NCBI GenBank assembly: GCA_963699165.1
Contig: OY969413.1
Location: 788,562-852,561, forward strand
Direction of reading: 5' to 3'
DNA from: Candidatus Kaiserbacteria bacterium
GTDB lineage: Bacteria; Patescibacteriota; Minisyncoccia; Phycocordibacterales; Phycocordibacteraceae
Length of the DNA: 64,000 nt
The position numbers were made by a program, and so were the translations under genes. Below are positions 7,649 through 37,325 of this stretch, one piece after another. The notes beneath the pieces are model-generated. The model was not told where the DNA came from. It was given only the letters and a program-made list of their open reading frames with translations, and ran no database searches. How positions within the stretch are numbered: position 1 is the stretch's first letter; every line of letters begins with the position of its first letter.

Positions 7649-7667
7649 CGTCCTTTATACTTTGTCC

Positions 7668-8246: not shown

Positions 8247-8254
8247 GATTCAAG

Positions 8255-13117: not shown

Positions 13118-13123
13118 AACAGG

Positions 13124-13369: not shown

Positions 13370-13390
13370 AACATATTCTACAAATTCCGT

Positions 13391-14273: not shown

Positions 14274-14325
14274 AGCACAAAAGCAGAAAGCCCTGCCGCA
14301 GGGCAGGGCTTTCTGCTTTTGTGCT
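14274..14325. repeat. perfect 24-bp inverted repeat with a 4-nt loop (long hairpin)
   Basis: agcacaaaagcagaaagccctgcc-gcag-ggcagggctttctgcttttgtgct, intergenic between two minus-strand genes. Confidence 0.7.
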
Positions 14326-14446
14326 CTCGGACAGAATCGAACTGTCATTGCCGGCTCCGCAAGCCGGTGTCCTATCCGTTGAACGACGAGAGCATGACGC
14401 GCGAACTCAAGTATGCCTACATACGAGAGCAACACTTGAATGTATA

Positions 14447-20049: not shown

Positions 20050-21390
20050 ATGAAAACAAAAACAGGCCCCGAGGGCCTGCGGATTGAGCATGTCTCAACC
20101 GCCGCCCTCAAACCCGCCGAATATAATCCCCGCACGTGGGACAAGGAAGCCGAGCAGCAGTTAAAGGAAAGTATTACCAAGTTTGGCATCGTCGATCCGA
20201 TTCTCGCTAACAGCGCACCGGAGCGCAGGGATGTCGTCATCGGCGGGCACTTCCGGCTCTCGGTCATCAAGGAGCTGGGCATCGAGACGGTGCCGGTGGT
20301 ATATCTCAACATCCCCGACATCGAGCGCGAAAAGGAACTTAACTTGCGGCTCAACAAAAACACTGGCGCGTGGGACGAAGCGCTGCTCGCAGAGTTCGAC
20401 GAGGCATTCCTCTCCACCGTCGGGTTCACCAGCGAGGAGATAGACGACATTTTCGCCATCGAAGAAACGCCGGAGCAATTCGACTTGGAGAAGGAACTCG
20501 CCAAGCTCGATATCAAAAACATCAATGTAAAGAAAGGCGACATCTACGACCTCAACGGCTCGCGCCTCATGTGCGGCGACAGTACTGTTGAGGAGGACAC
20601 GCTCAAACTCATGGATGGTGCAAAAGCTGACATGTGCTTCACCGACCCGCCGTATATCCTCGACTATCTCAAGGGCAAGACGAAGCAGAAGGATGGAGTG
20701 ACACGCGGATTCGGGGCGAAGAAAAATCGCGTGTACCTCGGTACCGAAACACTGCCGGAGAATTTCTCCGATCTTTGGATGGCAAATGTCGCTCTCGTAC
20801 AGAAGCCAGACTTCTCGATCATCATCTTCGAACATCCAAAGAACCTCCGCACCATATGGAACGCGATGGAGAAGCACTGGCGGTACCGCAACACCATCAC
20901 CTGGCATGTGCCCAATCGGGTGCAGGGCTTCTCTGCCAAGTACAAATTCTTCAACAAGCAGGATATCGCGCTAGTTGGTACGGGTGGCAATGTCGCGTTG
21001 GACATGGAACCCGAATCGGACACATTGCTCCAAACAGAATACGAGAACGCACTCTATGCCACTTCCGGCAAACCGCACTGGGAAGGATACGAGAAAGGCA
21101 AGAAATATCAACCCACCGACTTCATCGATCATATCGCAGCTGACCAAAAAAGTAGCGGCCAAGGCATCATATTCGGCACCAAACCTCTAGAATTGCTAAT
21201 CCCATACATCAAAGTGCTCACGAAGCGCGGAGACCTCATCTTGGAGCCGTTTGGAGGCTCTGGGAGCACTCTCATAGCCTCGGTAAAGATGCAGCGCCGC
21301 TGTTACCTCATGGAGAAGTCGCCTGTGTACGCCGAGGTCATCCTCAATCGCTGGTCAAGACTTACCGGTCTTACTCCAAAAAAGATATGA
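20050..21390 (+). CDS. ParB-like nuclease domain fused to an N6-adenine/N4-cytosine DNA methyltransferase (phage-type orphan methyltransferase)
   Basis: N-terminal ParB/Srx motif (LKPAEYNPRTWD), catalytic DPPY (FTDPPY) and C-terminal AdoMet motif FGGSGST, i.e. beta-class order. Confidence 0.8.
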   Translation: MKTKTGPEGLRIEHVSTAALKPAEYNPRTWDKEAEQQLKESITKFGIVDPILANSAPERRDVVIGGHFRLSVIKELGIETVPVVYLNIPDIEREKELNLRLNKNTGAWDEALLAEFDEAFLSTVGFTSEEIDDIFAIEETPEQFDLEKELAKLDIKNINVKKGDIYDLNGSRLMCGDSTVEEDTLKLMDGAKADMCFTDPPYILDYLKGKTKQKDGVTRGFGAKKNRVYLGTETLPENFSDLWMANVALVQKPDFSIIIFEHPKNLRTIWNAMEKHWRYRNTITWHVPNRVQGFSAKYKFFNKQDIALVGTGGNVALDMEPESDTLLQTEYENALYATSGKPHWEGYEKGKKYQPTDFIDHIAADQKSSGQGIIFGTKPLELLIPYIKVLTKRGDLILEPFGGSGSTLIASVKMQRRCYLMEKSPVYAEVILNRWSRLTGLTPKKI

Positions 21391-21860
21391 CCGAGACTAC
21401 CGAACCCTTCTCCATAGAGGAGAGGCAGGCGCATGACAAGCAGAAAGTGCTCGACGCGCTCAAGGAAATGCCAATAGTACAGATTGCGTGCAAGAAAGCG
21501 GGCATAAGCCGACCGACGTATTACCGCTGGCGGCAGGAGGACAAGATATTCAGACGGCAGGCCGTCGACGCGATGAACCACGGGGTCGAGTTCATCAACG
21601 ATATGAGCGAGTCGCAGATTATCTCTCTCATTAAAGACAAGAAACTGCAGGCCATGGCACTGTGGCTGAAGCACAACCATCCGAAGTACGGCGCCAAAGT
21701 CAAAGAATACACGCCCCTCAGCGCGGACGACGATCTGACCGAAGATGAGCAGAAAATTGTCATGGAGGCACTGTCGCTTATCGCGCAGGGAACACATAAT
21801 GTAAAACCATATGAACGAAACCGAACGCCTATCGACGCTGATAAATACGGCAAGAAATAA
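21387..21860 (+). CDS. phage terminase small subunit-like HTH protein
   Basis: HTH ACKKAGISRPTYYRWRQ. Its stop overlaps the large terminase start. Confidence 0.45.
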   Translation: MTETTEPFSIEERQAHDKQKVLDALKEMPIVQIACKKAGISRPTYYRWRQEDKIFRRQAVDAMNHGVEFINDMSESQIISLIKDKKLQAMALWLKHNHPKYGAKVKEYTPLSADDDLTEDEQKIVMEALSLIAQGTHNVKPYERNRTPIDADKYGKK

Positions 21861-22980
21861 CCCGAAGGTACGCCGGAGGCTCGGGCACGAGGACCCCCTC
21901 TACTTCGCCCTACTCTACCTCACGCATCACTTCAAGCATCCGCTGGCGCCCATGCACCTCGAGATGTTCGACATCGTGAAGCGTGGGGAGATAAACCTCG
22001 CGGCAGTCATGGCATTCCGTGAGTCGGGCAAGTCGACCATACTCAATACCGTGTGCGCGCTCTGGTCGATACTCTGCAAGCCGGAGCGCAAATTCGTGGT
22101 CATCGTGAGCAAGACGCAGGAGCAGGCGAAGAATCATTTCACCAACATCAAAGCGGAGCTTGAGCGCAATCCGTGGCTCAAGGAGGACTTCGGACCCTTC
22201 ACGGAGCGGCCGGAGGAGTGGAGCAAGCAATCGCTCGAGCTCGAGTACCACGGCGCGAAAATCCTCTCTGTCACCGCTCGCCAGAGTCTACGCGGGATGA
22301 AGCATCTCTCACACCGCCCCGACCTCATCATTATCGACGACGTGGAGGATGCTACATCAGTTAGGGACGATCGCTCGCGCGGCGACGACCTGTACCAATG
22401 GTATTTGGAAGAAGTCGTGCCGGCGGGGACCGACAAAACGCGCATCATAGTCCTCGGGAACCTGCTCTCAATGGTATTCGATGAGAAAAAGCCGGACTTT
22501 CTCGTCATGCGACTCCGGAGGGAGATACTCAGCCGCCGGCAGGTGGGTCTGTTCCGCGCCTACCCTCTCATCGACAATAACGGCGAGTGCCTCTGGCCAG
22601 GCAAGTACCCGACACGAGAATCCCTCAAAGTGCTGCGAGAGAAGGTAGGCCGAGGCCTCTGGCAGCGGGAGTACCTCCTCAAGGTATGGGGGCAGGAAGA
22701 TACTGCTTTAGTGGCCCCGCTGTTTTATGGAAGCGAACACGGCCGCTGGTCTATGGGGGCACACTTCATCACCATGTTCAATAAGGATGGATATACCGTG
22801 TATGACGGGGAGAATGGCGTTATGCTGCAACAGCCGCTCATCGCGCAGATGGCCAAATATGAAATTACGGCTCCGAGTATTCGAACCATGCTCTTCTACC
22901 CGACCAAAGACGACCCGCGCTTAAAGAAATACCTTGAAGGACTGCTGCTGGAGTGCGACTACCGGCATAATAGCGAGTGA
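21811..22980 (+). CDS. phage terminase large subunit-like ATPase
   Basis: Walker A RESGKST and Walker B LIIIDDVED in the spacing of the terminase ATPase domain. Confidence 0.6.
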   Translation: MNETERLSTLINTARNNPKVRRRLGHEDPLYFALLYLTHHFKHPLAPMHLEMFDIVKRGEINLAAVMAFRESGKSTILNTVCALWSILCKPERKFVVIVSKTQEQAKNHFTNIKAELERNPWLKEDFGPFTERPEEWSKQSLELEYHGAKILSVTARQSLRGMKHLSHRPDLIIIDDVEDATSVRDDRSRGDDLYQWYLEEVVPAGTDKTRIIVLGNLLSMVFDEKKPDFLVMRLRREILSRRQVGLFRAYPLIDNNGECLWPGKYPTRESLKVLREKVGRGLWQREYLLKVWGQEDTALVAPLFYGSEHGRWSMGAHFITMFNKDGYTVYDGENGVMLQQPLIAQMAKYEITAPSIRTMLFYPTKDDPRLKKYLEGLLLECDYRHNSE

Positions 22981-23676: not shown

Positions 23677-23747
23677 CAGGGTATGGTGAAGCGGTATCAT
23701 GCGTGGTTTGGAATCATGCGTCGTAGGTTCAACTCCTACTACCCTGA
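23677..23747 (+). tRNA. tRNA-Pro (anticodon TGG)
   Basis: Hand fold: acceptor CAGGGTA/TACCCTG (C1:G72, the Pro identity pair), D-arm GTGA...TCAT, anticodon stem CGTGG/TCATG with two G-U pairs, loop TTTGGAA, T-arm GTAGG-TTCAACT-CCTAC, discriminator A. Confidence 0.6.
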
Positions 23748-23819
23748 CAGATTATCTTGTGCCGAGCATTGGACGAAGTGAGAACCTCCGGATGGATATG
23801 CAGCCCAACAAATCTCTTG

Positions 23820-24119: not shown

Positions 24120-24533
24120 TTATTCGCTCCACAGCTTTGCGATAGTGTCTTTGGTCTTTTGCTCGTAAATGTCAATCAGTTTTTTGGAAGATTCTACTAA
24201 GCTCCGCTCGGCCTCGATTTTTTCCACTATTTGCTCTTGGACGGCTAAAGGCGGGAGAGGGATTTCGATTTCATTCAAAACTCGTATCGGTAATTGGGGT
24301 TGCGCACTTCCAGACATAAAATTTGAAACCTGCACCTCAAACTCTAAAGAATTCAAAAACAACAACAAAAAGTTCGGAGAAATCTTATCTAAGTTACTCC
24401 TTAGAATAACCATACCGGAATTGATTCTTATATTTTCAAACGGAATATTTTTTAAATAGTATGCCGTGTTTCCTAATGTGCCCCGCGTTGTCAAAACTAC
24501 ATCTTCACGCTTTAGTTTACCCTTCCGTAGTCC
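24120..24533 (-). pseudogene. hsdS: type I restriction-modification specificity subunit (HsdS) C-terminal fragment, truncated by IS3 insertion
   Basis: HsdS half-TRD with conserved coiled-coil region (LPPLAVQEQIVEKIEAERSLVE). The N-terminal part is missing and the reading frame runs into the IS3 left end at 24534. Confidence 0.6.
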
Positions 24534-24595
24534 TGACCTGACCCCCAAATTTCAGACCATGTTCTAGACGGGATTAACCGCTAGAATGACGTCAT

Positions 24596-24853
24596 ATGAA
24601 GCAATACCGCATCGCTCCTGAGGTGAAGGAACAAATCATTAATCGAATCAAGAACGATGGTGTCACTGTCGCCCAAGCGGCCAAAGAGCATGGTATCCAC
24701 GAGACCACCATCTATGGCTGGCTTGGTGCGAAAGTGCAAGACGGTACCGCATCTGTTCTTGAGATTGCGAGACTTCGAAAAGAGAATGACGAACTCCTTC
24801 GTCTTGTTGGACTCATGACGCTCAAGCTGTCTGAAACCCAAAAAAAGAAGTGA
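24596..24853 (+). CDS. IS3-family transposase OrfA (HTH)
   Basis: 85 aa. HTH plus leucine-zipper typical of IS3 OrfA. It overlaps orfB by 4 nt. Confidence 0.8.
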   Translation: MKQYRIAPEVKEQIINRIKNDGVTVAQAAKEHGIHETTIYGWLGAKVQDGTASVLEIARLRKENDELLRLVGLMTLKLSETQKKK

Positions 24854-25662
24854 GCAAAGAATCTCCGATTGGTACGCGCACAACAGCGCGTACTCTTGGT
24901 ATAGCTCGTTCCACCTTCTGGTATCAAAAGAAGAAGCCTGACAAAGACTGGGCACTCAAATGCCGTATTGAAGAAGTCCTTCGAGAGTTTCCTTCGTATG
25001 GATACCGGAGAGTTGCCCTGTATCTCAAGGAGAACAAAAAGAAGGTTCAAAGAGTCATGCGACTCTTTGGTATCAAAGCATATCGAAGAAGAGGAAGACG
25101 GTGGAGGAAATCAAGGAAACAAGCCGTGGAGTATCCAAATCTCCTGATGCGGATTGTACCCGCCTATCCGCATCAAGCATGGGTCGCTGATTTCACTCAT
25201 GTGTATTTCAAAGGGAAAGACATTCGTGTGGCAACCACCATGGACGTATACACTCGAAGTGTCGTTGGGCTCGCCATTGGTACGCGAGGTGGAACCGTAC
25301 TTGTGACGCAGGCATTGTGCGCGGCACTTCTCAACCATCCTCGTCCCACCATCTTTCACAGCGACAACGGAGTGGAATACAATGCCGCATCCTTCCGAGA
25401 GATGCTCATCAATTTCGGCATCAGCATCTCTCGCTCAAAAAAGGGCTGTCCGTGGGAGAACGGGTACCAAGAATCGTTCTATGGAAAATTCAAAACTGAT
25501 CTGGGCGATCCCAATCGCTTCGATACGCTTGGTGAACTTGTTGCTGAAATCTATCAGACAATTCACCGGTACAACACCGTGCGTATACACTCAACACTCA
25601 AGATGGCACCGAGAGAGTTTGCGAAATCGCACATCACCCGTACACTATCTTCACTCGTCTAG
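24850..25662 (+). CDS. IS3-family transposase OrfB (rve DDE integrase core)
   Basis: DDE triad region HSDNGVEY...WENG, rve fold. 270 aa. Confidence 0.85.
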   Translation: MSKESPIGTRTTARTLGIARSTFWYQKKKPDKDWALKCRIEEVLREFPSYGYRRVALYLKENKKKVQRVMRLFGIKAYRRRGRRWRKSRKQAVEYPNLLMRIVPAYPHQAWVADFTHVYFKGKDIRVATTMDVYTRSVVGLAIGTRGGTVLVTQALCAALLNHPRPTIFHSDNGVEYNAASFREMLINFGISISRSKKGCPWENGYQESFYGKFKTDLGDPNRFDTLGELVAEIYQTIHRYNTVRIHSTLKMAPREFAKSHITRTLSSLV

Positions 25663-25718
25663 GAAGTGGTCTGAAGAATAGGGGTCGGTACAGAATCGCT
25701 ATAGAAACTCTGGGCACG

Positions 25719-26219
25719 TCACCTAACCGAGAGAGTGTCCTTGATTTTTTGAGCAAGCTCGCTTGAGTTGAAACTTCCGTGGTTTTCCAATCGCAAGAGA
25801 GGCAAACCTGCGTCCTGCAAAATGCGCTCCACTTCTCGATCCCTCTCTTGTCGATCGGGGCGCTCGTGGGTTTTATCGTCCAGCTCAATTGCTAGTTTGG
25901 GCGAGATGTATGCCTTATCGCACAACACGAAATCAACTGACTTACCGTTTATGTGCCGGAATGCGCCTCGCCAGTTTTGGCCAACAACCTTACTATCTAC
26001 CAGCGTGGGCAGGTGAACCTGAGCGAAAACGAGATACTCGTTCCCAACAGCGGCTACCAAAGCGTCATAGCACTCATGCTCTGCACGGGACAGGAAAAAG
26101 TCCTTCCGCTTGTATTGGTACTTCTTTTCCTCGACGTCCTCACTCGTGGGGATTCGTAGAACGAAAAGTACGATAGCGATAACGGCTACAACACCGGCAA
26201 AAATGAATAGTATTGTCAT
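25719..26219 (-). CDS. membrane-anchored DUF2726/NERD-like nuclease-related domain protein
   Basis: N-terminal TM, then VDFVLCDKAYISPKLAIELDDKTHE, which matches the DUF2726 signature. Confidence 0.45.
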   Translation of the reverse strand: MTILFIFAGVVAVIAIVLFVLRIPTSEDVEEKKYQYKRKDFFLSRAEHECYDALVAAVGNEYLVFAQVHLPTLVDSKVVGQNWRGAFRHINGKSVDFVLCDKAYISPKLAIELDDKTHERPDRQERDREVERILQDAGLPLLRLENHGSFNSSELAQKIKDTLSVR

Positions 26220-26249
26220 AGCGATGGGTCAAATATAGCACCACGCCAC

Positions 26250-26399
26250 TCATTGCAGATCCGCGGCATCGTCCATATCAACATCACCGTCGGCAACCAT
26301 CTGTTGCACCTCCGGATCGAGAGCTTCAAAATCCGCAATCTGGTCGGGCTCGATAACTCCATCCTTTACTAGCTCAAGTATTTCTTCCGGGTCCATAGA
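26250..26399 (-). CDS. small acidic protein (49 aa), unannotated in the ORF track
   Basis: Manual translation MDPEEILELVKDGVIEPDQIADFEALDPEVQQMVADGDVDMDDAADLQ. Resembles the 22988-23116 product. Confidence 0.3.
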   Translation of the reverse strand, partial: SMDPEEILELVKDGVIEPDQIADFEALDPEVQQMVADGDVDMDDAADLQ

Positions 26400-26412
26400 T
26401 AGATAGTCGACA

Positions 26413-29400
26413 TCAGTAGAAATTCACCCCGCTCTTTTTGAGCTCACTCTCACGCGTATTGGTCAGTGAGAATTCGATTTGCGCGATTTCCTTCTCGTTC
26501 AGGTCGAAGAGTTTATAAACGATCTCGTCAATTTCATGTTCGATTTGTGTGACTGCGCCCATGTCGCCTGCAGCAGCTGCTTTTGTCGCCCGATCGGCAA
26601 GATCCGTAAGGCGGCCTTTGTCGGCGGGGTTCGCTGTAGGAATCGGCACTTTGGCCATTCGATCTCCTCGAAATTGCACTCGGCCCGCACTCCAAGGGTC
26701 ACCCCATGACGGAAATGTTGATCGATAGAACCAATCCATAACAGTGCTATTTAATATTGCCAATACGTACAGAGCGTCGGGCGTAAGAATTATAAAACCC
26801 GTTTTATTTATCGCGTTTCCTTCAGTATCTAGATATGCATGAAGTCGCTTCGAGGTTTCATTGAACACTATTTTCGGCTCATTGAATGCGGCGATATAAG
26901 ACTTCGATGGATTGTTATCCAGCTCAAGCCAGTGATGCTGGCCTTCGCCACCCCCGCGCCTTGACGTTTTACATTGCCCGCGAGCTTTTAGTAGATCTTC
27001 GAACCTGTTTAGATGATTCAGGACAGCAGGATATTTAGCCAGTTCTGTATTGAAGCCAAATGGAACTATAATTACATAAAACTGATGATATTCGTGAGTC
27101 CATCGTTTAATGTCGCGTCCACGAATCCATGGCTTTATCAACTCGGCCGATTTTGAATCCTCGCAGACTAATTTTTGCCGAGTGTCGCCATCTATCACGA
27201 ACGCTTCATTCAAACCCGTCTTAATACCGTAATAAAATCTGTCTTTAACATAATCCTCAAGCGGAGTACCGACAGATTTTAACTTTTCAATTAGCTCAAG
27301 CCCGGAACTACCTTCCAACGACCAGCCCTCCTCTTTCAGTTGTGACGGCGAGTAAATACTTTTCTGTTTGGTGATAACCTGCCGGAGCCACGCAATATCA
27401 GATTCATTTTTTACCACCAACGCAGTAATTTCGTCCGCTTCTTGTGCCTTTGATTTCTCTACAACCACGATCATTGGATCTGTCGATGCCTCAAAGACCG
27501 GAAGTTCGCAAAAATCAATTAGGTCGTGGATTCGATACGAGGAAAGCAGCTGTCGCAAGTTGCGGCCATACCCGGCCCGCTGAAATTTATTTGAACTGAT
27601 GAAGGAAAGGACGCCGCCTGTACGCAAAAGATTCAAACCGCGTTCATAAAAGAGACAGTAAATGTCACCACGGGCCGCAAAGGTCTTGTAACTTTTTCTC
27701 CACTCCGCCTGTTTAACGGTTCGAGCAAATTTTTCAATAGAGATATAAGGCGGATTGGCAATAACGATATCGAAACCGCCTTTTCGCTCTACTGCGGGGA
27801 AGAAATATCTGGTATCGAAAAATCCGACCGGCTTGTTTGTAAATATATTCTCGTAGCTGCCCCAAAGATTATTTATCCTAAGTCGTTCTTCGTGCTCATC
27901 CTCATTTTTTTCTGCCAGTAACTTTCTATGTTTTTCGTCTTTAACGACACTAAACGAGCGCAAAATACTCTCCAACTCTTTTTTTGTTCTGTCAGTTATC
28001 AACTGCTGCAATTTCCTGCCAACCTCTAATTTATGCAACTGGTCTACTGGGGCAAAATATTCATCGATGAGTTCGCCCAGTTCTACTGCAAACGTGTCTC
28101 CAAATAGCGGTCCTTCGTGGACCGGTGGTTTTGTGAGTGTGTCGGCACAAACGAATTTAAAGTCGAGGTTGGGTAACGGGTCGATGCCTCTATTGGGAGC
28201 ACTGTCGTCAACGCGTTGATCGACAACAAGCGTGAGAAAGCAACGCAGTCGCGATATGTCGGTCGCTACTGGCTGAATGTCGACTCCGTGAATGCATTCT
28301 CGAATCACACCTAACTTTCGGACATAGGGAAGGTTGTGTTCTTGCAGCTGTCTGCGCACCTCTACTGGCAGTTTACTCAGGTAAATGGAGCAGTCAGGAT
28401 CAAGGATTCCAAGCATGCGCACCAAGTGTTGAAGCACTCCGATGGGAAATGCGCCAGAGCCGCATGCTGGATCTAAAACCGCTGTTCCGTGTATTGCTTC
28501 CACGATCGTCCTCCTTTCATTTTCAGGAATCGGGTACTGTAAATCGTCTTCAACGTCGTATGTCGAGAGAGCACGTATCTTTTCCTCGGAAAAGCCAGTT
28601 TTAGTCACCAAATGACTAACAATCGCTTCCTCTACCATGAAATCAACAATTTCGCGTGGCGTATAAAAACTTCCGGTTGCACTTCGTGCACTGTCACCAG
28701 TTTCGGGATTTACCTCGGCAAGAAGATTTTCAAATATTCTTCCCAGCATTTCAGGGTCGATGGAGAGCTCTGTATCTATCGAGGTATTCTCATCGATTGT
28801 GAAGTTATACTCCTCGAAAATCCCGAATAATCCCGCAAACCATTCATCGGGAACTACAACAGATCCACGTCGGTCGCTCATGCCCGTAGTACGGTTAAAT
28901 TTGTGATTGTCTTCTGCGTGGTCCTGAAACAGACCTCCATTTAGAAATGGCACCATCTCGAATAGGTCGGAATGCCTAAAAAAGGATGGCCTAGAGTTGT
29001 GCGGCTTATTCAGTACTTCAAAAAAAAGTGGCACACAAAGGGAGTGATAATAATCCCCGGTTCTCGTCACCGCATCGACTGAAAGTAAATCGGACGGAAT
29101 TAGCGGTATACCTTCATTGCTTTTCTTTTGCTTCAAAAACCAGCAAAAAACAAGACGACCAATAAGCCGTATTGCGAAGTTGGCATACACGTCATCGCTT
29201 TGCGCTCCCAGAGCAAGGGTTCTTTGAAATGATACTGCACGCCTTCCTTCGCCTCTTACACCCCCAACCAGCTTAGAGTATTGCTCCGCAATTCGCGTAT
29301 AAAATTCCTTGCTTACGACTTCAAGCGAGAAGCGACTCAAGAGGTCGTCGGTGTCTTTGACACGACCGTGTTTTACGAGTTGTTGTTCCGGGGTCTTCGT

Positions 29401-29805
29401 TTTCGCGCCGACACCGAGATAAAAAGAATAGCGACGAGCATTGGAATACTTTGCGACGATCTTGTTCTTTTCGTTGAGATCGAGCGAAATGGTGAGGTAC
29501 GAGAGGCGATAGTTCTCAGATTCGTTGTTTTTGAAAATTACAAGTGCCTTGTCGTAGCCGAAAGTGGCGAGGATTTTGAACGCATCGGTCGCAATGGAAA
29601 CACGCGGGTCTGTCTCCTTTGCATGGGTCATTTCGAGTACGTAGGTATTGAGCGAGGGGGCGTGGCCGAGCTCGCGCGCTTTCGTGATTATCTTACATCG
29701 CGATAGATCAGCGATGTCTTTTTCTTTCTCAACATAATCCTCAGGCAGAAAATCTTGAAGAAATGCCGAAAATGCATCGGGGTTGTATTTTTGGTCAAAC
29801 TTCAT
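26413..29805 (-). CDS. MmeI/PglX/Eco57I-superfamily gamma-class N6-adenine DNA methyltransferase with a C-terminal TaqI/Eco57I-type target-recognition domain
   Basis: 1130 aa. AdoMet motif I VLDPACGSGAFP and catalytic motif IV IANPPYIS. Helical-domain motifs RLVFCWF and PFLNGGLFQD parallel MmeI RLLFCLFAED / PYINGKLFE. C-terminal YGIKTGLNEAFVIDGDT is TaqI_C-like. Low GC. Confidence 0.85.
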   Translation of the reverse strand: MKFDQKYNPDAFSAFLQDFLPEDYVEKEKDIADLSRCKIITKARELGHAPSLNTYVLEMTHAKETDPRVSIATDAFKILATFGYDKALVIFKNNESENYRLSYLTISLDLNEKNKIVAKYSNARRYSFYLGVGAKTKTPEQQLVKHGRVKDTDDLLSRFSLEVVSKEFYTRIAEQYSKLVGGVRGEGRRAVSFQRTLALGAQSDDVYANFAIRLIGRLVFCWFLKQKKSNEGIPLIPSDLLSVDAVTRTGDYYHSLCVPLFFEVLNKPHNSRPSFFRHSDLFEMVPFLNGGLFQDHAEDNHKFNRTTGMSDRRGSVVVPDEWFAGLFGIFEEYNFTIDENTSIDTELSIDPEMLGRIFENLLAEVNPETGDSARSATGSFYTPREIVDFMVEEAIVSHLVTKTGFSEEKIRALSTYDVEDDLQYPIPENERRTIVEAIHGTAVLDPACGSGAFPIGVLQHLVRMLGILDPDCSIYLSKLPVEVRRQLQEHNLPYVRKLGVIRECIHGVDIQPVATDISRLRCFLTLVVDQRVDDSAPNRGIDPLPNLDFKFVCADTLTKPPVHEGPLFGDTFAVELGELIDEYFAPVDQLHKLEVGRKLQQLITDRTKKELESILRSFSVVKDEKHRKLLAEKNEDEHEERLRINNLWGSYENIFTNKPVGFFDTRYFFPAVERKGGFDIVIANPPYISIEKFARTVKQAEWRKSYKTFAARGDIYCLFYERGLNLLRTGGVLSFISSNKFQRAGYGRNLRQLLSSYRIHDLIDFCELPVFEASTDPMIVVVEKSKAQEADEITALVVKNESDIAWLRQVITKQKSIYSPSQLKEEGWSLEGSSGLELIEKLKSVGTPLEDYVKDRFYYGIKTGLNEAFVIDGDTRQKLVCEDSKSAELIKPWIRGRDIKRWTHEYHQFYVIIVPFGFNTELAKYPAVLNHLNRFEDLLKARGQCKTSRRGGGEGQHHWLELDNNPSKSYIAAFNEPKIVFNETSKRLHAYLDTEGNAINKTGFIILTPDALYVLAILNSTVMDWFYRSTFPSWGDPWSAGRVQFRGDRMAKVPIPTANPADKGRLTDLADRATKAAAAGDMGAVTQIEHEIDEIVYKLFDLNEKEIAQIEFSLTNTRESELKKSGVNFY

Positions 29806-32800
29806 GCGGCTATCAATTCTTCGGACAGCACTATTAACTTTCCTGCATCGTTCGCGCGATCAGCGGTTTCAAAAATGCTCTCAAGATACTTTTGGGGCAC
29901 GAGTTCCTTGAGCGCGATGAATGCCTTACCGAGATTATCTTTTTCCATTCGCAAGTCGCCAATTTCTTTGAGCACGCCGTACGGAAGGCCGTCGAGATCT
30001 TTGATGGTCTTGATGATATCATCGCATAAATCTTTCGCGGGCGAATGATTTTCGGATAGGAACTTGAGATTTTTAAGCGCATCCTGCTTGCGGCGGCCGG
30101 TAATCGGTGGTTTGGTATTGTCCTTAAATATGTGTTCTTTGGCGATTTTGTATATTGGCTCGAAGTTTACCGTCGTTTCTAACGCTTTCTCCCCTTCAGT
30201 GATGTCATTGAAGAGAGGGAGCGCGATTTCCGGTGCAACGATTTGCACGGTCTCCGGTGTTTTACCGAACGCAAAAACAAAGTTGCCGCTCCTTTTTGCG
30301 AGCGCAACAACACCCGGGATGGCAAACTTACGAGCAATACGAGCCCGGTGCGGAATGGAGGCAATCTGCTTCCTGATTTCGGGATCGTGCCGGAAACGCA
30401 TCCACTCGTCCCGATATTTCGCATCCCACGACAAACTCTCGCTCTTATTCTTTTCTTCCTGATACTGCTTGGCAAAGTAGTTTTTGAGGTCTTCGTCTTT
30501 GGTGAAGATTTTGGTGTCCTCACCTAGCAAAGAATGGATCAAGTCCATTTTCAGCGTCGAAATAGCCCGCGTGTGGGTTTCCACTTCCCCGGTTGTCGTT
30601 GGGAAGAAGTTGAAAATATATAACTCATCAAATACCTTTTTGTTGATACGGTTGATGCGACCGACGCGTTGAATTACACGCGTCGGGTTATATGGAATAT
30701 CGTAGTTTATAACCGCCCCAGCACGGTGAAGGTTAAACCCTTCGGAGATGGCGTCGGTGGCAATGATGATGTCATAGTCGTCGGATTGCTTCGCCTTTTC
30801 AAGGCCGGCATCAAAGTTCTTTTGGATGATCTCCTTGTTGCTTTTCGACGAGTCCTCCGAACTGTATTTATAGACACGCTTGATGCCCTCGGCAGCAAGC
30901 TTGTCGGAGACGTAGTTTGCCGTATCAGTAAACTCGGTGAAGACGATAATTTTGCGTTTCGGTTCGTTCTTGATGGACCGCGTGATTTTTTCTTTGAAAA
31001 AATCATACTTTGGGTCGGTTTCTACCTTGAGCCACTTTTCCTGTACCTTTTCCAGGAGCGTAATGTCCTTCTCAAGTGCGGCACGAAATTGCGGTTGCAT
31101 TTCAGAGACTGGGATTTCGATGAGCCCTTTATCTTTGAGTCGCCCGAACAGCTCCTCGATCTCTTCGGCAGTCTTTTCTTCCAGTTCTTCAGTTGTCGGA
31201 AGTGCGCCCTTTTTAAAAATCGGAACAACGCCTTTATTATCGTACCAGTCGAGCATCGTCTCCGACGAAGCGATCATGTTTTTAAGCGAAGCACGGAACG
31301 AGCCGATAGAGCTTTCAAACCGGCGCACGAGCAAACGTCGCATGAACTTGGCGACGTTTGCCTGTGCTTGCGTGATCCGTTGGATTTTCTCTTCAGCTGA
31401 GATGTCACTTTCTTCGTCTTCTTCAGCTTCTATAAGTTCTTTGATGAACTTTGATCCGGTTTTGATGTAGCTTGCAGGCTTGTAGCGCACACCCTCGAAA
31501 CTCTCCGATTTATCGGAGGACGATATTTGCTCAAGCGTCTCAATGTAGAGAGGAGTGAGTTCGCCGAGGTCGTACTCAAGGATTTCCGGGTCGCGTACTT
31601 CCGCGAACGCAACACCCTGTTTCTCAAGGTCTAGGCGATAGTCCTCGATTTCTTTGAGATCAAGGCGAGAGCGACGAATAACAAGTGGCTCTATCATTTT
31701 CCGCAGTTCTGCGGCGATGGCGTGAAGTTCTGTTTGAACCTCTGATATTCCTTCAAGCCCGTTTTGCTTGGATGATTTCCGTATCTCACGGCGTATGTTT
31801 TTGTAGCGCTTGAAGAGTTCATGGAATGAGATGCTCAGGTTTTCGACGGTCTTGATAGTCGACTGACCAGGCGTGCTGAAAAGCTTAATGAGCGCGTAAA
31901 TGTCTTTTGGGTCATTGTTGAATGGGGTTGCCGAGAGCGCCATGACGGAATTGCCCGCACAGAGTCGGTGGAGCACTTTATAGTTGTCAGTATCTTCATT
32001 GCGGTGCTTATGAGCTTCGTCGAGAACAATGAGTACGTTTTTGTCGTTGCCATGTCGCTCTAAGGCTTTTTCGATTTCTCCAGTGGTATACACGAAGCCG
32101 TTGAAGTTGAAGCCCGAACGATAGTCATCCCACTGCGCCTTTAGATGCGGGGGCGCAATGATAATTGTCTTTCGGTCGAGATTGTGCGCGATGGTAGAAG
32201 CAATGATACTTTTGCCAAGACCGACGACATCAGCGATGATGACTCCACCGAAACGCTTGATGCGGTCTATACCAAGATTTACAGCATCTTTTTGGTACTT
32301 AAGATCGATGAACTTGCCGTCGGTGATCTGCTGCGGCGTCTTCATGCCATCTATCTCCTCGACGGAAAAATACTCGTCGAGAACGCGGTAATACATCAAC
32401 TTCGGGTCAGGCAACTGATAGAGCCAAATACGTTTTTTGACTTCAGCGATGAACTCGTCCGAGATGTTGATGTCGGTGATGGTTATATTACTCGGGTCAT
32501 TCCACGCAGCCTCAAATTCTCCAAAATGCTGTTCGTAGTAGTGCTTTTCAGAAAGTACGAGATTGTGTTCCCTTTGTCCCTTGAGACCGGAGTAGGTGAG
32601 ATTACTTGAGCCCACAAAGACCATGCCCGGTTTTTCACCATTCTCAGAGTACTCTGGTTTATGGTGGAGGATATAAAACTTGGCGTGGTTTGCCTCGGCA
32701 GTCTTCCTTATTAGTAAGCTGCCGTCTTTTATTTTGCTCAAGAAAATCTCAAAGGCTCTTTGCGACTCTTCATTATCGAAGTAGTCAGTATCGTTGAAGA

Positions 32801-33098
32801 TTTTTGAAAAACTCTCGATATACTCATTGCGCGCACTTGAACGAGTAGAGATTTTTGTACCCACCGCATGGTCGTCAAGGTCAAGGCCGTCAAATGATGA
32901 GATTTTTTCGATAATTTTCTTATCGATATCCATTCCGACGAGGATACGAATTGTTTTATCTTTCAGCTCTTCGTGTAAATCGCGAAAACCAGAAAAATAG
33001 AAATAGCCGACGAGAGCATCAATCCGGTCACTTTTGGGCAAAATCTCCTTGAGTTTTGAGGAAAGTGTGTTCTCGCCAACGTTGGTAATTGAGGGCAT
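29802..33098 (-). CDS. phospholipase-D-family nuclease domain fused to an SNF2/Rad54-family (SF2) DNA translocase ATPase
   Basis: 1098 aa. N-terminal PLD HxK motif NHAKFYILHH...VGSSNLT. Walker A GLGKS, DEAH box LDEAHKHRN, motif III LSATPF, helicase-C IIATDAISEGFNL and motif VI QRVGRINR. It overlaps the methyltransferase gene by 4 bp (ATGA). Confidence 0.85.
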   Translation of the reverse strand: MPSITNVGENTLSSKLKEILPKSDRIDALVGYFYFSGFRDLHEELKDKTIRILVGMDIDKKIIEKISSFDGLDLDDHAVGTKISTRSSARNEYIESFSKIFNDTDYFDNEESQRAFEIFLSKIKDGSLLIRKTAEANHAKFYILHHKPEYSENGEKPGMVFVGSSNLTYSGLKGQREHNLVLSEKHYYEQHFGEFEAAWNDPSNITITDINISDEFIAEVKKRIWLYQLPDPKLMYYRVLDEYFSVEEIDGMKTPQQITDGKFIDLKYQKDAVNLGIDRIKRFGGVIIADVVGLGKSIIASTIAHNLDRKTIIIAPPHLKAQWDDYRSGFNFNGFVYTTGEIEKALERHGNDKNVLIVLDEAHKHRNEDTDNYKVLHRLCAGNSVMALSATPFNNDPKDIYALIKLFSTPGQSTIKTVENLSISFHELFKRYKNIRREIRKSSKQNGLEGISEVQTELHAIAAELRKMIEPLVIRRSRLDLKEIEDYRLDLEKQGVAFAEVRDPEILEYDLGELTPLYIETLEQISSSDKSESFEGVRYKPASYIKTGSKFIKELIEAEEDEESDISAEEKIQRITQAQANVAKFMRRLLVRRFESSIGSFRASLKNMIASSETMLDWYDNKGVVPIFKKGALPTTEELEEKTAEEIEELFGRLKDKGLIEIPVSEMQPQFRAALEKDITLLEKVQEKWLKVETDPKYDFFKEKITRSIKNEPKRKIIVFTEFTDTANYVSDKLAAEGIKRVYKYSSEDSSKSNKEIIQKNFDAGLEKAKQSDDYDIIIATDAISEGFNLHRAGAVINYDIPYNPTRVIQRVGRINRINKKVFDELYIFNFFPTTTGEVETHTRAISTLKMDLIHSLLGEDTKIFTKDEDLKNYFAKQYQEEKNKSESLSWDAKYRDEWMRFRHDPEIRKQIASIPHRARIARKFAIPGVVALAKRSGNFVFAFGKTPETVQIVAPEIALPLFNDITEGEKALETTVNFEPIYKIAKEHIFKDNTKPPITGRRKQDALKNLKFLSENHSPAKDLCDDIIKTIKDLDGLPYGVLKEIGDLRMEKDNLGKAFIALKELVPQKYLESIFETADRANDAGKLIVLSEELIAA

Positions 33099-33198
33099 AG
33101 ATAAAATCTAGCATTTTTGCAGACATTTTGGAGCATCTGGTTACCAACTCCGAGGCCTCTCGGACGCTCTGGACTCCTGGGGGGAGACGCGTCATCCC

Positions 33199-34539
33199 TT
33201 GTGTTGTATGCAAACCATAACCGTGCCGGTGGGGCTTCCGGCCAAGCCAATACAAGCCCCCGTACGGGTCAGGTACTGCCTGTACGCCCGCAAGAGTACC
33301 GAAAGCGAGGAACGCCAAGTCCTCTCCATAGACAGCCAGATCAAGGAGATGCTCCAGCTGGCAGAGCGGGAGGGGCTGGAGATCGTGGAGCTCAAACGCG
33401 AGAGCCACTCTGCGAAAGAGACCGGCCAGCGACCGATTTTCAACGAGATCGTCGAGGAGCTCAAGGCGGGTAAATTCAACGGCATCCTCACGTGGGCACC
33501 GGATCGTATCAGCAGAAATGCCGGTGACCTCGGCAAGATCGTAGATCTCATGGACGCAGGTGTGCTGCAAGAGATACACACGTACAGCCAGAGCTTCAGG
33601 AACAATCCGAACGAGAAGTTCCTTCTCATGATATTGGGGAGCCAGGCGAAACTTGAGAATGATAACCGAGGTGTGAATGTGCGGCGCGGACTAAGAACGC
33701 GCTGCGAAATGGGTTTGCGTCCCGGCGTTGCGCCGACCGGCTATATCAACGAGTACACGAAGGAGCAGAATGCCGCGAAGCGCTGCCACGCCGTCATCGA
33801 CCCCGTGCGCGGCCCCATCATCAAGAAGATGTTCGAGAAGGTAGCAAACGAGAAATGGAGCGGTCGCAAGCTCCATCACTGGCTCAAATTCGATATCAAC
33901 TTTAAGTCCAAGGGCAACAAGAACCTCTCCCTCGGCAACATCTACGTCATCCTCCAAAATCATTTCTACTACGGCACCTTCGAGTACCCGGAGAAGAGCG
34001 GCAACTGGTACCACGGCAAGCATGAGCCGCTTATCTCGAAGGAGCTTTTCGACGCCGTCCAGGTGCACCTGAAGCGCGATCAGATCGTGCGCTCGGAGAT
34101 AAAAGAATTCGCCTTCACGAAGCTCATGGTCTGCGGCTCCTGCGGCTCGGGCATCTGCGCCGATGAGAAGTTCAAGCGCCTCAAAGACGGCACCTCAGCC
34201 CGCTATGTCTACTATGGCTGTACCCGCCACAAGGACAAGAGCTGCAAGAACGGCTATGTACGCGAGGAGGCCTTAATCGAGCAGATGGTGAAGGTGATGG
34301 ACGACGTGGACTTCAACAAGATAGCTATGCGGGAGAAGTTCGAGGAGGAGATGGAGCGGCTCAAGAAGTTCCAGCGCATGTTCGCCAGCGGAGACTCTGC
34401 ACCAAAGAAAGACATTGATCTCTGCGACTATGCGAAGTATCTTCTTCGCAACGGCAGTCTCACAGAGAAGCGCGAGCTACTGCTCTGTATCAAGAGCAAG
34501 TTGGTGCTGAAGAAAGGGGTGTTAGGACTGGAGAAATAG
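33199..34539 (+). CDS. large serine recombinase (resolvase/invertase N-domain, recombinase domain, zinc ribbon)
   Basis: Catalytic region VRYCLYARKSTESEERQ...SIDSQ, recombinase domain and CGSCGS...C..C zinc ribbon. 446 aa. Confidence 0.85.
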   Translation: MCCMQTITVPVGLPAKPIQAPVRVRYCLYARKSTESEERQVLSIDSQIKEMLQLAEREGLEIVELKRESHSAKETGQRPIFNEIVEELKAGKFNGILTWAPDRISRNAGDLGKIVDLMDAGVLQEIHTYSQSFRNNPNEKFLLMILGSQAKLENDNRGVNVRRGLRTRCEMGLRPGVAPTGYINEYTKEQNAAKRCHAVIDPVRGPIIKKMFEKVANEKWSGRKLHHWLKFDINFKSKGNKNLSLGNIYVILQNHFYYGTFEYPEKSGNWYHGKHEPLISKELFDAVQVHLKRDQIVRSEIKEFAFTKLMVCGSCGSGICADEKFKRLKDGTSARYVYYGCTRHKDKSCKNGYVREEALIEQMVKVMDDVDFNKIAMREKFEEEMERLKKFQRMFASGDSAPKKDIDLCDYAKYLLRNGSLTEKRELLLCIKSKLVLKKGVLGLEK

Positions 34540-34712: not shown

Positions 34713-35150
34713 CTAAATGGGCTGCTTGATTTTTGCGTATTCTATTTTGCAACCGACGATTCCGAAGGCCTCGTGGCAATTCACTACTGGCGACATCCAA
34801 CCCGGAACTTTTGGTAAGGTGCCGAAGTCAAGTGCGGTTTCCTGAGTGCCAGAAAACACCACCAACTCCCGATCAACGACCGGCGATTGCTCTGCAAGTT
34901 TGAAGCCGTTCTTTCGCAAGAAATCAGCCACCACCTGTCCGACCTTCTTTGGAGAGTAAATCTCGACGTACCCCTTCGGTAGCAAAACCTTAGCAAGGGC
35001 GGCTTCTGCATCAACCGGCGTCTCATAAATCTCATCCAATATGTATTCGGTTGCGTAACCAGAGCCGACACTTGAGTCTACGATTTCAGCGGCGGCTCTC
35101 CATTTGCCGTCCTCCGAGCGCTGCTGTGGTTTTGAGTAGTAGAAAAGCAT
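34713..35150 (-). CDS. hypothetical protein, third gene of the ClpP-like cassette
   Basis: 145-aa ORF. A 3-nt gap to the upstream gene suggests an operon. Confidence 0.4.
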   Translation of the reverse strand: MLFYYSKPQQRSEDGKWRAAAEIVDSSVGSGYATEYILDEIYETPVDAEAALAKVLLPKGYVEIYSPKKVGQVVADFLRKNGFKLAEQSPVVDRELVVFSGTQETALDFGTLPKVPGWMSPVVNCHEAFGIVGCKIEYAKIKQPI

Positions 35151-35152
35151 AG

Positions 35153-36490
35153 TTAATGTTGTACCAACTTCGCAGTCATCAGTCTGACGACATTCCTCAC
35201 CGATTCAAACACCAGCCCGATGGTCGCCTCATCAGCGACGATGAATCCGCGATGTGCGTATTGGCACCTGGCTTTATATAGTTTATCAAACCAAGGAAGA
35301 AGTGAGGCATCGAGGGCGTGTATTGCACCCACGATGTATTTTACATTGTCGTTAATAACGGCTTCGGGTACGAATAGGTGCTCAAGACAGCAATAAAGCA
35401 GGAGCAGTTTCGCGCCGAGATCAGAGACTTGGGTTGCAGAACTCAAAATATCTAGCGATGGTGCCACGTTAGACATACTCTCCTTGCTCCAGGGATTCTC
35501 GAGGAGATCAAAGATTAGCTTGTTATCGACAATGAATCTTTTCATCCCGCCGAATGTTCGCGTGTCGAGCCACATCGGCGAGAGGCCGCGATACCCAAAG
35601 GAGCGGAAAAGACAGCCGTCTGGGAATTTAGCCCACGGCTCTTTCCGATCCTCATGCCATGCAAAAACTCCTATGGTGCGAGCCCCAAGAAACACGGGAG
35701 TAGTGGGCGCTTCAATTTTGACATCAAAGCCGAAATCTATTTGCCCGTGGTGAACAAAGCCCGCGATTCGAAGTAAGTTCAGGAATGCACGAAGCGAGGC
35801 GGAGGCATAAAGGTACGCGTATGTCTCTGTGCCGGTAACCGTAAATCCTATGGATGGACTTGAGAAGAATTGCCGAGCGCTCGGGAGTGTGAGCTGCCGT
35901 AGATGTGGCTGTAACTCCTTGAACTTCTGCTCCAATGCATCGTCCTCAAGGTAACAAGAAAAAGGTGCTTCGAGCCCAACAAACATGTCTTCAAAGAATT
36001 CTCTGGCACCGCCCATCTCGGTTCGGAACTCAGTTATGTGAGTTATGAGGGTGCGCTCTTTAATCGAACCATCAAGTAATTCGAAATGACGATTGAGTAC
36101 ATCTTCCGCTGGTGATTCGCGCTCGCGCCAATCGAAACGGAATGCGGGCTCCTTAAGGTAGAAGAGGCCTCCGCCCGTTCGTTGAATAAACTCTTGCTCT
36201 GTGTCCGTAGCGAAAACGAGCTTGTAGTGGAACAAGATGTCAAGAATATCTAGCGGAGAAAATCTCAAACCATTCTCATGAAAGACTCGGCATTCTTCCT
36301 TGATTTCATCGAGCATTGGTTTGCGTTGAAAATATTGTTCTTTCCTCCACTTATCTTGGAGCGGCATAGCACGAGCACGACCGACTTCGCTGTCGGCGAG
36401 CCGCTCTATGCGGGAATAGGCCTCCAGTCCGATCCTTTCCTTCAGCTCTTCCACTCGTGGCATACGGGTGATTATAGACCGGCTGCCCAT
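35153..36490 (-). CDS. hypothetical protein with a C-terminal HEPN-like Rx4H motif
   Basis: 445 aa. C-terminal KARCQYAHRG (R-x4-H). No other recognisable domain. Confidence 0.45.
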   Translation of the reverse strand: MGSRSIITRMPRVEELKERIGLEAYSRIERLADSEVGRARAMPLQDKWRKEQYFQRKPMLDEIKEECRVFHENGLRFSPLDILDILFHYKLVFATDTEQEFIQRTGGGLFYLKEPAFRFDWRERESPAEDVLNRHFELLDGSIKERTLITHITEFRTEMGGAREFFEDMFVGLEAPFSCYLEDDALEQKFKELQPHLRQLTLPSARQFFSSPSIGFTVTGTETYAYLYASASLRAFLNLLRIAGFVHHGQIDFGFDVKIEAPTTPVFLGARTIGVFAWHEDRKEPWAKFPDGCLFRSFGYRGLSPMWLDTRTFGGMKRFIVDNKLIFDLLENPWSKESMSNVAPSLDILSSATQVSDLGAKLLLLYCCLEHLFVPEAVINDNVKYIVGAIHALDASLLPWFDKLYKARCQYAHRGFIVADEATIGLVFESVRNVVRLMTAKLVQH

Positions 36491-36508
36491 AAAATGCGGT
36501 CCCGACGT

Positions 36509-37156: not shown

Positions 37157-37238
37157 AATAAACCGAAAGATTCATTCAGTTCGAGTCCCTCCCGCCCTCC
37201 AATAGGAGAAGGTCGGTAAACACTAGCGCCCTAGACTG

Positions 37239-37325
37239 CGGAAGGGGTGAGATTCGAACTCACGGTCCCCGTTAAGAGACGGCGGATTTCAAGTCCGCTG
37301 CGTTAGACCACTCTGCCACCCTTCC
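37239..37325 (-). tRNA. tRNA-Ser (anticodon TGA), type II with a long variable arm
   Basis: Hand fold: acceptor GGAAGGG/CCCTTCC, anticodon arm GCGGA-CTTGAAA-TCCGC, variable hairpin, T-arm GTGAG-TTCGAAT-CTCAC. Close to the E. coli Ser tRNA pattern. Confidence 0.8.

Follow-up and report, generated by a model that had tools for sequence, protein, structure and literature searches.

What is encoded by two large, overlapping genes in the genome of a Candidatus Kaiserbacteria bacterium, and do their products act together? The genes lie in a stretch of 64,000 nucleotides (GenBank assembly GCA_963699165.1, contig OY969413.1, positions 788,562 to 852,561 of the forward strand), here called the window, to which all coordinates refer. 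A preliminary description, made from the sequence alone, had taken them for an atypical or undescribed two-gene restriction or defence system. The upstream gene, A, joins a phospholipase D (PLD) family nuclease domain with an HKD motif to an SNF2-type ATPase, and the downstream gene, B, encodes an N6-adenine methyltransferase that carries its own target recognition domain (TRD). The analysis reported here suggests that A and B probably form a two-component, ATP-dependent restriction-modification (R-M) system, resembling a Type ISP enzyme divided over two genes. Their open reading frames (ORFs) and the junction between them are as follows.

29802..33098, minus strand: gene A, PLD(HKD) nuclease-SNF2 ATPase, 1098 residues (ORF, translation, Pfam)
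26413..29805, minus strand: gene B, MmeI/Eco57I-type gamma-class N6-adenine methyltransferase with its own TRD, 1130 residues (ORF, translation, Pfam, PADLOC)
29802..29805, minus strand: ATGA overlap of the A stop codon and the B start codon (sequence read)

The junction reads ...GCC GCA TGA / ATG AAG..., which gives the 4-bp overlap. Both genes are ORFs of ~1100 codons with significant domain matches, far beyond what chance would produce, and the two minus-strand ORFs, the overlap and every motif quoted in the preliminary description were found again in the sequence and its translations.

Domain content of the two proteins

Pfam searches with A returned PLDc_2 (7.8e-09), SNF2-rel_dom (1e-11) and Helicase_C (7.8e-18); ResIII was also reported (1.1e-05), but without any single stretch passing the threshold. 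The translation contains NHAKFYILHH, VGSSNLT, GLGKS, DEAHKHRN, LSATPF, IIATDAISEGFNL and QRVGRINR, and was divided into the following regions, the ATPase belonging to helicase superfamily 2 (SF2).

32499..33059, minus strand: PLD/HKD nuclease domain of A, residues ~14-200 (Pfam PLDc_2, residues 49-199)
32601-32687, minus strand: single HKD motif of A, H138-x-K140 ... G163-S-S-N166
30459..32300, minus strand: SNF2-type SF2 ATPase core of A, residues ~267-880 (Pfam SNF2-rel_dom, Helicase_C)
29805..30458, minus strand: C-terminal region of A, residues 881-1098, without Pfam or PADLOC coverage

Across 63 homologues with 29-86% identity, the nuclease residues H138, K140, G163, S164, S165, N166, E177 and N179 were at least 95% conserved. 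The ATPase motifs consist of Walker A GLGKS (residues 293-297), DEAH (360-363), SATP and QRVGRINR, and the Walker A, DEAH and motif VI (QRVGRINR) sequences reached the same level of at least 95% in the same homologues. Profile matches of A in the PDB were limited to the helicase lobes of Chd1, ISWI, RapA and Hef, that is to generic SF2/SNF2 proteins. The C-terminal region was kept within the close family, while homologues of ~30% identity aligned only to residue ~924. Only one HKD motif was found in A. The PLD-family nucleases Nuc and BfiI have one active site built from two HKD motifs; since each A chain carries one, A would by analogy have to dimerise to complete an active site and cut. The sole near-full-length PADLOC match to A, C3a139 HKD+Snf2, was considered as a named defence system and rejected, since its origin is a cluster of type III CRISPR accessory proteins (PMC6546367).

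B was matched by the Pfam families Eco57I (1e-35), TaqI_C (4.6e-11) and N6_Mtase (2.3e-10), and its translation contains DPACGSGAF, IANPPYIS and YGIKTGLNEAFVIDGDT. PADLOC assigned B its best label, Type IIG, from two REase_MTase_IIG matches (2e-107 and 4e-105). Four regions were distinguished.

29401..29805, minus strand: N-terminal domain of B, residues 1-135, family-specific, alpha/beta
28786..29400, minus strand: helical spacer of B, residues ~136-340, MmeI-like
27466..28785, minus strand: methyltransferase catalytic domain of B, residues ~341-780 (Pfam Eco57I, residues 503-771, and N6_Mtase)
26416..27465, minus strand: TRD and C-terminal helices of B, residues 781-1130 (Pfam TaqI_C, residues 892-1033)

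Motif I (DPACGSGAF, residues 445-453) and motif IV (NPPY, 684-687) were both conserved in 65 homologues. The PDB sequence matches of the TRD were CamA, BseCI and TaqI, with CamA the best for B. When 53 homologues of B were compared with Pfam, MmeI_hel was found in 37, MmeI_Mtase in 23 and DUF7814 in 44, and the nuclease domain of MmeI, MmeI_N, in none. The N-terminal domain of B occupies the position which this nuclease has in MmeI, and no D, E or K was conserved within residues 1-135 across the 65 homologues. In a library of 1.84 billion representatives the domain was represented by 586 clusters; in the 150 best matches it was always N-terminal, in proteins of ~1000-1250 residues or fragments of these, and none of these 150 representatives was an A-B fusion, the longest being 1351 residues. 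As far as can be judged from sequence, B is an MmeI-like enzyme with a family-specific and apparently non-catalytic domain in the nuclease position. It has probably lost, or never had, an N-terminal PD-(D/E)xK nuclease. The domain assignments of the preliminary description, including its statement that B has no recognisable nuclease, were thereby upheld by the Pfam matches and by the conservation of catalytic motifs across the family.

Pairing of the genes and exchange of the recognition domain

A profile of A was scanned against 185,579 species-representative genomes and recovered 80 loci (29-86% identity). Of these, 68 had 1.5 kb or more of DNA beyond A, and every one of the 68 had a homologue of B following on the same strand; in two of them (L054 and L058) B was seen downstream by tblastn. 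The distance was no more than 130 bp in 64 of the 68, the gap being mostly -4 or -1, which corresponds to overlapping stop and start codons. Twelve IMG/VR contigs carried A, with B behind it in 11, and the twelfth contig ended inside A. The pairing was also seen from the other side: in look-ups anchored on B, with proteins sharing its N-terminal region, a PLD-SNF2 gene lay upstream in four of four, and in Dehalococcoides this upstream gene was a frameshifted remnant. The preliminary description had made its proposal depend on co-occurrence of homologous pairs in other genomes, and in the loci examined the pairs were together without exception.

When the neighbouring ORFs were clustered de novo, the family of A was represented in 82 loci and that of B in 76. 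Behind them came serine recombinases (25 of the 82 loci, within 10 kb of the pair), ParB-methyltransferases (17), small-terminase-like proteins (12) and large terminases (11), and over the 82 loci no third conserved gene emerged. Because B follows A throughout and no third family is conserved, the system is taken to consist of two genes.

Pairwise identities were then compared over 1,953 locus pairs, giving the following Spearman coefficients (rho) against the identity of A.

B residues 1-135 vs A: rho 0.95
B residues 201-440 vs A: rho 0.77
Methyltransferase domain vs A: rho 0.66
TRD vs A: rho 0.09

Likeness between loci therefore declines along the operon from the A side towards the TRD. Between loci L012 and L028, for example, identity is 98% both for A and for the N-terminal domain of B, but drops to 72% for the methyltransferase and to 19% for the TRD. 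The TRD of B from the window was only 11-37% identical to those of all homologues, regardless of the identity of A, and in loci with an A only 39% identical to that of the window the core of B was ~75% identical. Hypervariability of the TRD at the end of this gradient suggests the diversification of specificity that is typical of R-M systems, and exchange of TRDs on a constant chassis would, by analogy with Type I HsdS and the MmeI family, be a signature of selection for changing specificity. The close tracking of A by the N-terminal domain of B fits a contact surface.

Proposed mechanism, known systems and alternative explanations

The following scheme is proposed. The TRD of B would read a specific sequence, and B would methylate the host copies of it. 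Where the site on foreign DNA is unmethylated, the B bound to it would recruit or license A, with residues 1-135 of B as the proposed point of contact. A would then pull double-stranded DNA by means of its ATP-driven SNF2 translocase, and two A subunits would complete the HKD active site and cut, for example where two translocating complexes converge, in the manner of enzymes of Types ISP, I and III. A defence phenotype would be expected from such an activity.

Several points weigh against this scheme. The interaction of A with B is inferred from linkage only, and since the N-terminal domain of B is encoded beside the 3' end of A, their co-variation could come from recombination distance or linkage alone. 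The predicted topology of that domain is compatible with a degenerate PD-(D/E)xK fold, and B may retain residual nuclease activity through non-canonical residues. The PLD fold and the C-terminal domain of A were assigned from sequence; an AF2 model of full-length A was poor (pLDDT 62, pTM 0.37) and was not used, the alignment being shallow (17 sequences at 64-80% identity) and the C-terminal region of low confidence. In several loci (L099-L102) the pair is split or pseudogenised, and no experiment on the A-B family was found in the literature searched. Finally, the frequent linkage to terminase and recombinase genes allows a role that serves a mobile element rather than the host.

The pair is not accounted for by any complete system known, in agreement with the preliminary description, and among known enzymes the closest functional analogue is Type ISP (LlaGI, LlaBIII). 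The order of parts is common to both: a nuclease, an SF2 translocase, a coupling region, a gamma-class N6-adenine methyltransferase and a TRD. Type ISP enzymes, however, are one polypeptide with an Mrr-family PD-(D/E)xK nuclease and a Type I-like motor, whereas A and B are two translationally coupled genes with a single-HKD PLD nuclease and an SNF2-family motor. With the MmeI-type enzymes of Types IIL and IIG (MmeI, NmeAIII, DrdV, Cj0031), B shares the gamma-class N6-adenine methyltransferase, the helical spacer and a TRD on the same chain. These enzymes have their own N-terminal PD-(D/E)xK nuclease and use no ATP, whereas B has another N-terminal domain without catalytic residues and, unlike them, is always preceded by a PLD-SNF2 gene. 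The preliminary description had called the logic of the pair Type III-like. That is reasonable, as the Type III (EcoP15I-type Mod/Res) enzymes and the present proposal both combine a methyltransferase that bears the specificity with a dependent SF2 ATPase-nuclease, and both involve ATP; but the pair more nearly resembles a Type ISP enzyme divided in two or an MmeI without its nuclease. Type III Mod proteins belong to the beta class of methyltransferases, their TRD being internal, and Res draws on a different helicase family and has its PD-(D/E)xK nuclease at the C-terminus. The present pair departs from this in gene order and in domain families, A having an N-terminal PLD domain with an SNF2 ATPase and B a C-terminal TaqI_C TRD.

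Whether the pair serves its host or a mobile element was considered from its surroundings in the window, where the following features were located.

23677..23748, plus strand: tRNA-Pro(TGG), on one side of the low-GC segment (ARAGORN)
37238..37325, minus strand: tRNA-Ser(TGA), on the other side of the low-GC segment (ARAGORN)
33199..34539, plus strand: large serine recombinase, intact, divergent from A (Pfam Resolvase, Recombinase, Zn_ribbon_recom)
20050..22980, plus strand: phage-like module overall (Pfam, PHROGs)
20050-21390, plus strand: ParB_N-N6_N4 methyltransferase of the phage-like module
21387-21860, plus strand: small-terminase-like ORF of the phage-like module
21811-22980, plus strand: large terminase of the phage-like module, truncated to 389 residues
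24120-24548, minus strand: type I HsdS fragment, 142 residues, in a decay zone at 24120..25662 (Pfam Methylase_S; PADLOC Specificity_I)
24850-25662, plus strand: transposase ORF with an rve integrase core, in the decay zone (Pfam rve, rve_3, HTH_21)

The two tRNA genes, the intact recombinase, the transposase and the HsdS remnant had all been reported in the preliminary description and were all found. Its statement that the pair is much more AT-rich than its surroundings was right as to a distinct composition, but 'much' overstates a difference of ~8 points: the GC content of the pair is 46.4%, that of the window beyond the island 54.1%, and the lowest 6.7-kb GC window elsewhere in the stretch is 49.9%. 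Since the pair shares its low-GC segment with a serine recombinase and with the phage-like module of ParB-methyltransferase and terminase genes, it probably reached the Kaiserbacteria genome on a mobile element.

It could be argued further that the pair mainly serves a phage or integrative element, as an addiction, superinfection-exclusion, or host-DNA-degradation and self-marking module, the biochemistry being the same and only the beneficiary another. The module of ParB-methyltransferase, small and large terminase and serine recombinase borders the pair here and at 11-17 further loci, A is found on the 12 IMG/VR contigs, with B wherever the contig continues past A, and A matches phrog_26785 at 9e-103. 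The best 120 matches of A are full length with 64-89% identity, the named ones coming mostly from varied lineages of the Candidate Phyla Radiation (CPR); conservation of this degree is unusually high for such divergent hosts and suggests recent horizontal transfer. The low GC content of the pair also speaks for this reading. More than 60 of the 80 loci, however, have no terminase module within 10 kb, and unrelated phyla also have the pair in defence islands of the ordinary kind, or carry it on plasmids or mobilisable elements. Despite the match to phrog_26785, it is not a gene of characterised phages, since a tblastn search with A of 50,697 deposited phage genomes found partial matches only, none above 27% identity. 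As R-M systems are common on mobile elements, the setting speaks for a context rather than for a different mechanism, and a function mainly for the element is considered unlikely.

A second possibility is that B is a self-contained Type IIG/IIL enzyme and A an independent or auxiliary helicase-nuclease, such as a backup effector of Type IV-like character. The PADLOC label of B would suit this, but the longer of the two Type IIG matches begins only at residue 198 of B and the other consists of three stretches, the best covering residues 664-1113. A nuclease domain is not indicated either by MmeI_N or by conserved acidic or lysine residues in the N-terminal domain, and an unbroken A-to-B adjacency with overlapping codons, reciprocal when traced from B, is not expected of independent genes. 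This explanation is quite improbable.

The pair could also be a degenerate remnant of a Type-2 BREX-related (BR)/Hma system or of class 1 DISARM. The Type-2 BR/Hma systems have in common with A and B an effector formed by an N-terminal HKD endonuclease and a Swi2/Snf2 helicase, together with an N6-methyltransferase; Type-2 BR is centred on a DUF499 AAA+ ATPase, with DUF3780 in 98% of taxa (Rakesh & Krishnan, Nucleic Acids Research, January 2026; PMC12839542). Class 1 DISARM shares an SNF2 helicase (DrmD), a PLD nuclease (DrmC) and an N6-adenine methyltransferase (DrmMI). Partial matches of A to DrmD, HmaA and BrxH models and of B to DrmMI and PglX models point in the same direction. DrmD models were the best matches of A in both PADLOC and NCBIfam, but the NCBIfam score lay far below the cut-off (NF038317, 139 bits vs 610), and the same was true of the PglX models of BREX on B (45-70 bits vs cut-offs of 400-900; at best 70 vs 400). 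The HmaA match in PADLOC was restricted to residues 638-851 of A (5e-23), in the C-terminal helicase lobe only. PLD and SNF2 are fused in A, in distinction from DISARM, and B fits the Type IIG models (2e-107) far better than DrmMI (8e-25). As the preliminary description had stated, the DrmA/DrmB (DUF1998) core, PglZ, BrxC or BrxC-like proteins, HsdR and Res are missing, and so are DUF499 and DUF3780: none was found either in the window or in the genes conserved around A and B at the 80 related loci, and Pfam scans of recurrent and intervening neighbours contained no DUF499, DUF3780 or DUF1998. The pair is not DISARM, BREX or Type-2 BR/Hma because the partners that define them are absent, and a remnant would not be expected to persist as an intact two-gene form in many phyla over a range of 29% to 86% identity; such an origin is very improbable.

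A role outside defence, in which an epigenetic methyltransferase and an SNF2 remodeler or nuclease act in gene regulation, DNA repair or nucleoid remodelling, might be read from the match of A to RapA, an SNF2 ATPase of a kind with housekeeping roles, and from CamA as the best PDB match of B, orphan MmeI/CamA-like methyltransferases being regulators of physiology, but the hypervariable TRDs, patchy distribution, low GC content, mobile and defence-island context and frequent pseudogenisation are unlike housekeeping genes, and the conserved HKD motif argues for DNA cleavage, so that this role can hardly be credited.

The architecture had been thought undescribed, and this did not fully hold. HKD domains fused to SWI2/SNF2 ATPases were reported in bacterial R-M systems by the Aravind group in 2012 (PMC3417536), and an HKD-SNF2 helicase with an N6-methyltransferase forms the core of Type-2 BR, along with the two extra genes that are absent here (PMC12839542). 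The exact pairing is found in Bacteroides ovatus (CP083813.1) and in similar loci with a Cj0031 homologue and a coding sequence (CDS) for a PLD/SNF protein, in the same order (PMC9881135). In that study (Nucleic Acids Research, 2023) a Cj0031-like 'Type II RM' CDS has the PLD+SNF CDS immediately upstream, and long reads confirm programmed inversions in the methyltransferase gene; the pair was only tabulated, as a Type II RM enzyme and a neighbouring CDS, and was not analysed as a system (PMC9881135). Invertible TRD cassettes were not seen in the window, where no search aimed at them was made. A preprint from 2026 describes SWI2/SNF2- and helicase-linked R-M components as enriched in CPR. In the literature searched, no paper was found that defines, names or tests the two-gene system, and searches on MmeI with HKD and helicase, and on CPR with PLD and helicase, found nothing. 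The pairing had thus been noticed in earlier genome surveys; the core idea of the preliminary description holds and its novelty was overstated.

A broader proposal is offered tentatively, as one a little easier to doubt than to assert: that PLD-SNF2 proteins with nuclease-less MmeI-like methyltransferases constitute a distinct, widespread and unnamed class of ATP-dependent R-M systems, a split and PLD-armed counterpart of Type ISP. A new type of N-terminal adaptor domain in B would link the recognition of a site to a single-HKD nuclease that translocates and, once dimerised, cuts, and the class, masked as 'Type IIG' by annotation tools, would be especially common in CPR and spread on phage-like elements. 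If this is true, many genes whose best match is a stand-alone 'Type IIG' enzyme would encode just one half, for specificity and modification, of an ATP-dependent enzyme with two subunits and would lack nuclease activity by themselves, which bears on censuses of defence systems, on REBASE-style predictions and on the mining of MmeI-like enzymes as programmable reagents. A PLD/SNF2 solution would join the translocating restriction enzymes of Types I, III and ISP, and the pair would offer a simple two-gene model for the licensing of an SNF2 motor by a methylation-sensing partner, a question that also bears on DISARM, BREX type 3 and the Hma/BR systems. CPR bacteria are largely uncultured; homologues in cultured Parabacteroides distasonis, under the accessions WP_009274870 and WP_009274871, and, according to the literature, in Bacteroides ovatus make the hypothesis directly testable.

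Distribution and neighbouring genes

A is 100% identical to a 'helicase-related protein [Minisyncoccia bacterium]', which places the host within the CPR (Patescibacteria), and more than 4,400 proteins match A at E <= 1e-10. Most of the 80 genome loci bearing A belong to CPR bacteria. At 64-89% identity A was seen in metagenome-assembled genomes (MAGs) labelled Paceibacterota, Moranbacteria, Nomurabacteria, Roizmanbacteria and Taylorbacteria, and the profile scan also reached Doudnabacteria, Falkowbacteria, Kaiserbacteria and others. Loci L031 and L032 gave tblastn results identical in every field, one being labelled a Candidatus Azambacteria MAG and the other a Flavobacteriaceae MAG, and a CPR-like locus (L004/L024) was labelled Firmicutes/Bacillota. 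In view of such cases, several of the labels outside CPR among the close homologues may be binning errors, and the breadth of phyla above 60% identity needs to be read with care.

Outside CPR, the pair is present in a plasmid record of Parabacteroides distasonis (NZ_OY725763; A 42% identical), annotated as 'SNF2-related protein' and 'N-6 DNA methylase' and flanked by a gene for an RNA-binding-domain protein and by TIR/AAA genes, and in Mucilaginibacter gossypii on a mobilisable element. A megablast of the pair against the PLSDB plasmids gave no match. More remote PLD-SNF2 relatives in Pseudarthrobacter and Haloferax (24-25% identity) lie directly beside Eco57I/MmeI-type methyltransferases, and in Allomeiothermus (31% identity) such a methyltransferase is found ~1.8 kb upstream with one gene between. 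MmeI_N was not matched in any of these three methyltransferases; that of Pseudarthrobacter matched MmeI_hel, MmeI_Mtase, MmeI_TRD and MmeI_C.

The other recurrent or intervening neighbours were assigned by Pfam to LexA-like repressors, tyrosine integrases, Cas4-like PD-(D/E)xK proteins, Fic, KilA-N and DUF3800, along with Gabija-like genes, a dGTPase-like HD protein and housekeeping genes. Individual loci have the pair adjoining Gabija-like AAA_15/TOPRIM and UvrD genes (L075, 16626-20629), a dGTPase-like HD protein (L071, 16542-17828) or TIR and AAA proteins (L097, 16636-21019), and in L100 a Piwi/prokaryotic Argonaute (pAgo) gene with a DpnII-MboI-family protein lies near the pair (681-4048), AIPR being present at this locus as well. 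Neighbouring defence genes in unrelated genomes are consistent with a location in defence islands.

The ParB_N-N6_N4 methyltransferase, small-terminase-like ORF and large terminase, which like the DUF2726 gene considered below had no place in the preliminary description, recur beside the pair in CPR genomes, usually with a large serine recombinase (L003, L004/L024, L012, L014/L085, L019, L021, L027-L029, L036, L051, L061, L086), and also on IMG/VR contigs that bear the pair. Three arrangements were seen, the pair lying outside the recombinase, outside the ParB-methyltransferase, or, as in the window, between recombinase and terminase. A LexA/S24-like repressor is often found near the module. 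The large terminase has 389 residues in the window compared with ~480-494 elsewhere, so the module looks decayed here. It may represent one end of a CPR prophage or satellite-like element with the pair as cargo.

Downstream of B one further gene was located.

25719..26219, minus strand: DUF2726 protein, 166 residues (Pfam DUF2726 4.7e-29, MTES_1575 1.8e-05, DUF559 1.3e-04)

It lies 194 bp from B on the same strand; MTES_1575 is a restriction-endonuclease family and its match was weak. PADLOC gave no match for the protein. Consensus scans for promoters and terminators over 25600-33300 returned hits at chance level and were uninformative on co-transcription of this gene. As a third core component it was rejected, its homologues being near the pair in only two other loci (L006, L056), and it is possibly an optional accessory nuclease or an unrelated neighbour. 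Small genes of nuclease families stand just after B in a minority of loci (L051, L061, L044, L063, L073, L031), and in seven loci B is closely followed by a gene for a Cas4-like PDDEXK_1 protein; they may be optional backup nucleases or selfish insertions. A functional tie between DUF559/MTES_1575 nucleases and B, raised by P0142, was also set aside, as it is probably explained by an insertion splitting B in L102, where a DUF559 domain lies inside the truncated B ORF (7001-8605) and was read as an insertion.

Damaged copies of the pair take several forms. In L102 A and B are each split; in L101 B is in two pieces and a RhuM gene is inserted between A and B; in Dehalococcoides mccartyi both genes are frameshifted or split and adjoin a Piwi/pAgo gene. 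B is truncated in Mucilaginibacter, and in L003 it has 778 residues, with most of the TRD missing. Damage of this kind suggests frequent inactivation, as might be expected by analogy with costly R-M systems.

Between the tRNA-Ser gene and the serine recombinase of the window (34713-37156, minus strand), a weak Clp-protease-like ORF of 215 residues (Pfam 3e-13; PHROGs 'head maturation protease' 3e-07) precedes two ORFs of 445 and 145 residues with no family match in Pfam, PHROGs or PADLOC. Homologues of this group at other loci showed no linkage to the A-B pair, and its members may be what is left of a prohead protease and capsid, or else genes of the host. The GC content dips sharply a second time, to 41.7% in one 1-kb window (13001-14000), just before a tRNA-Arg(GCG) gene at 14321-14393.

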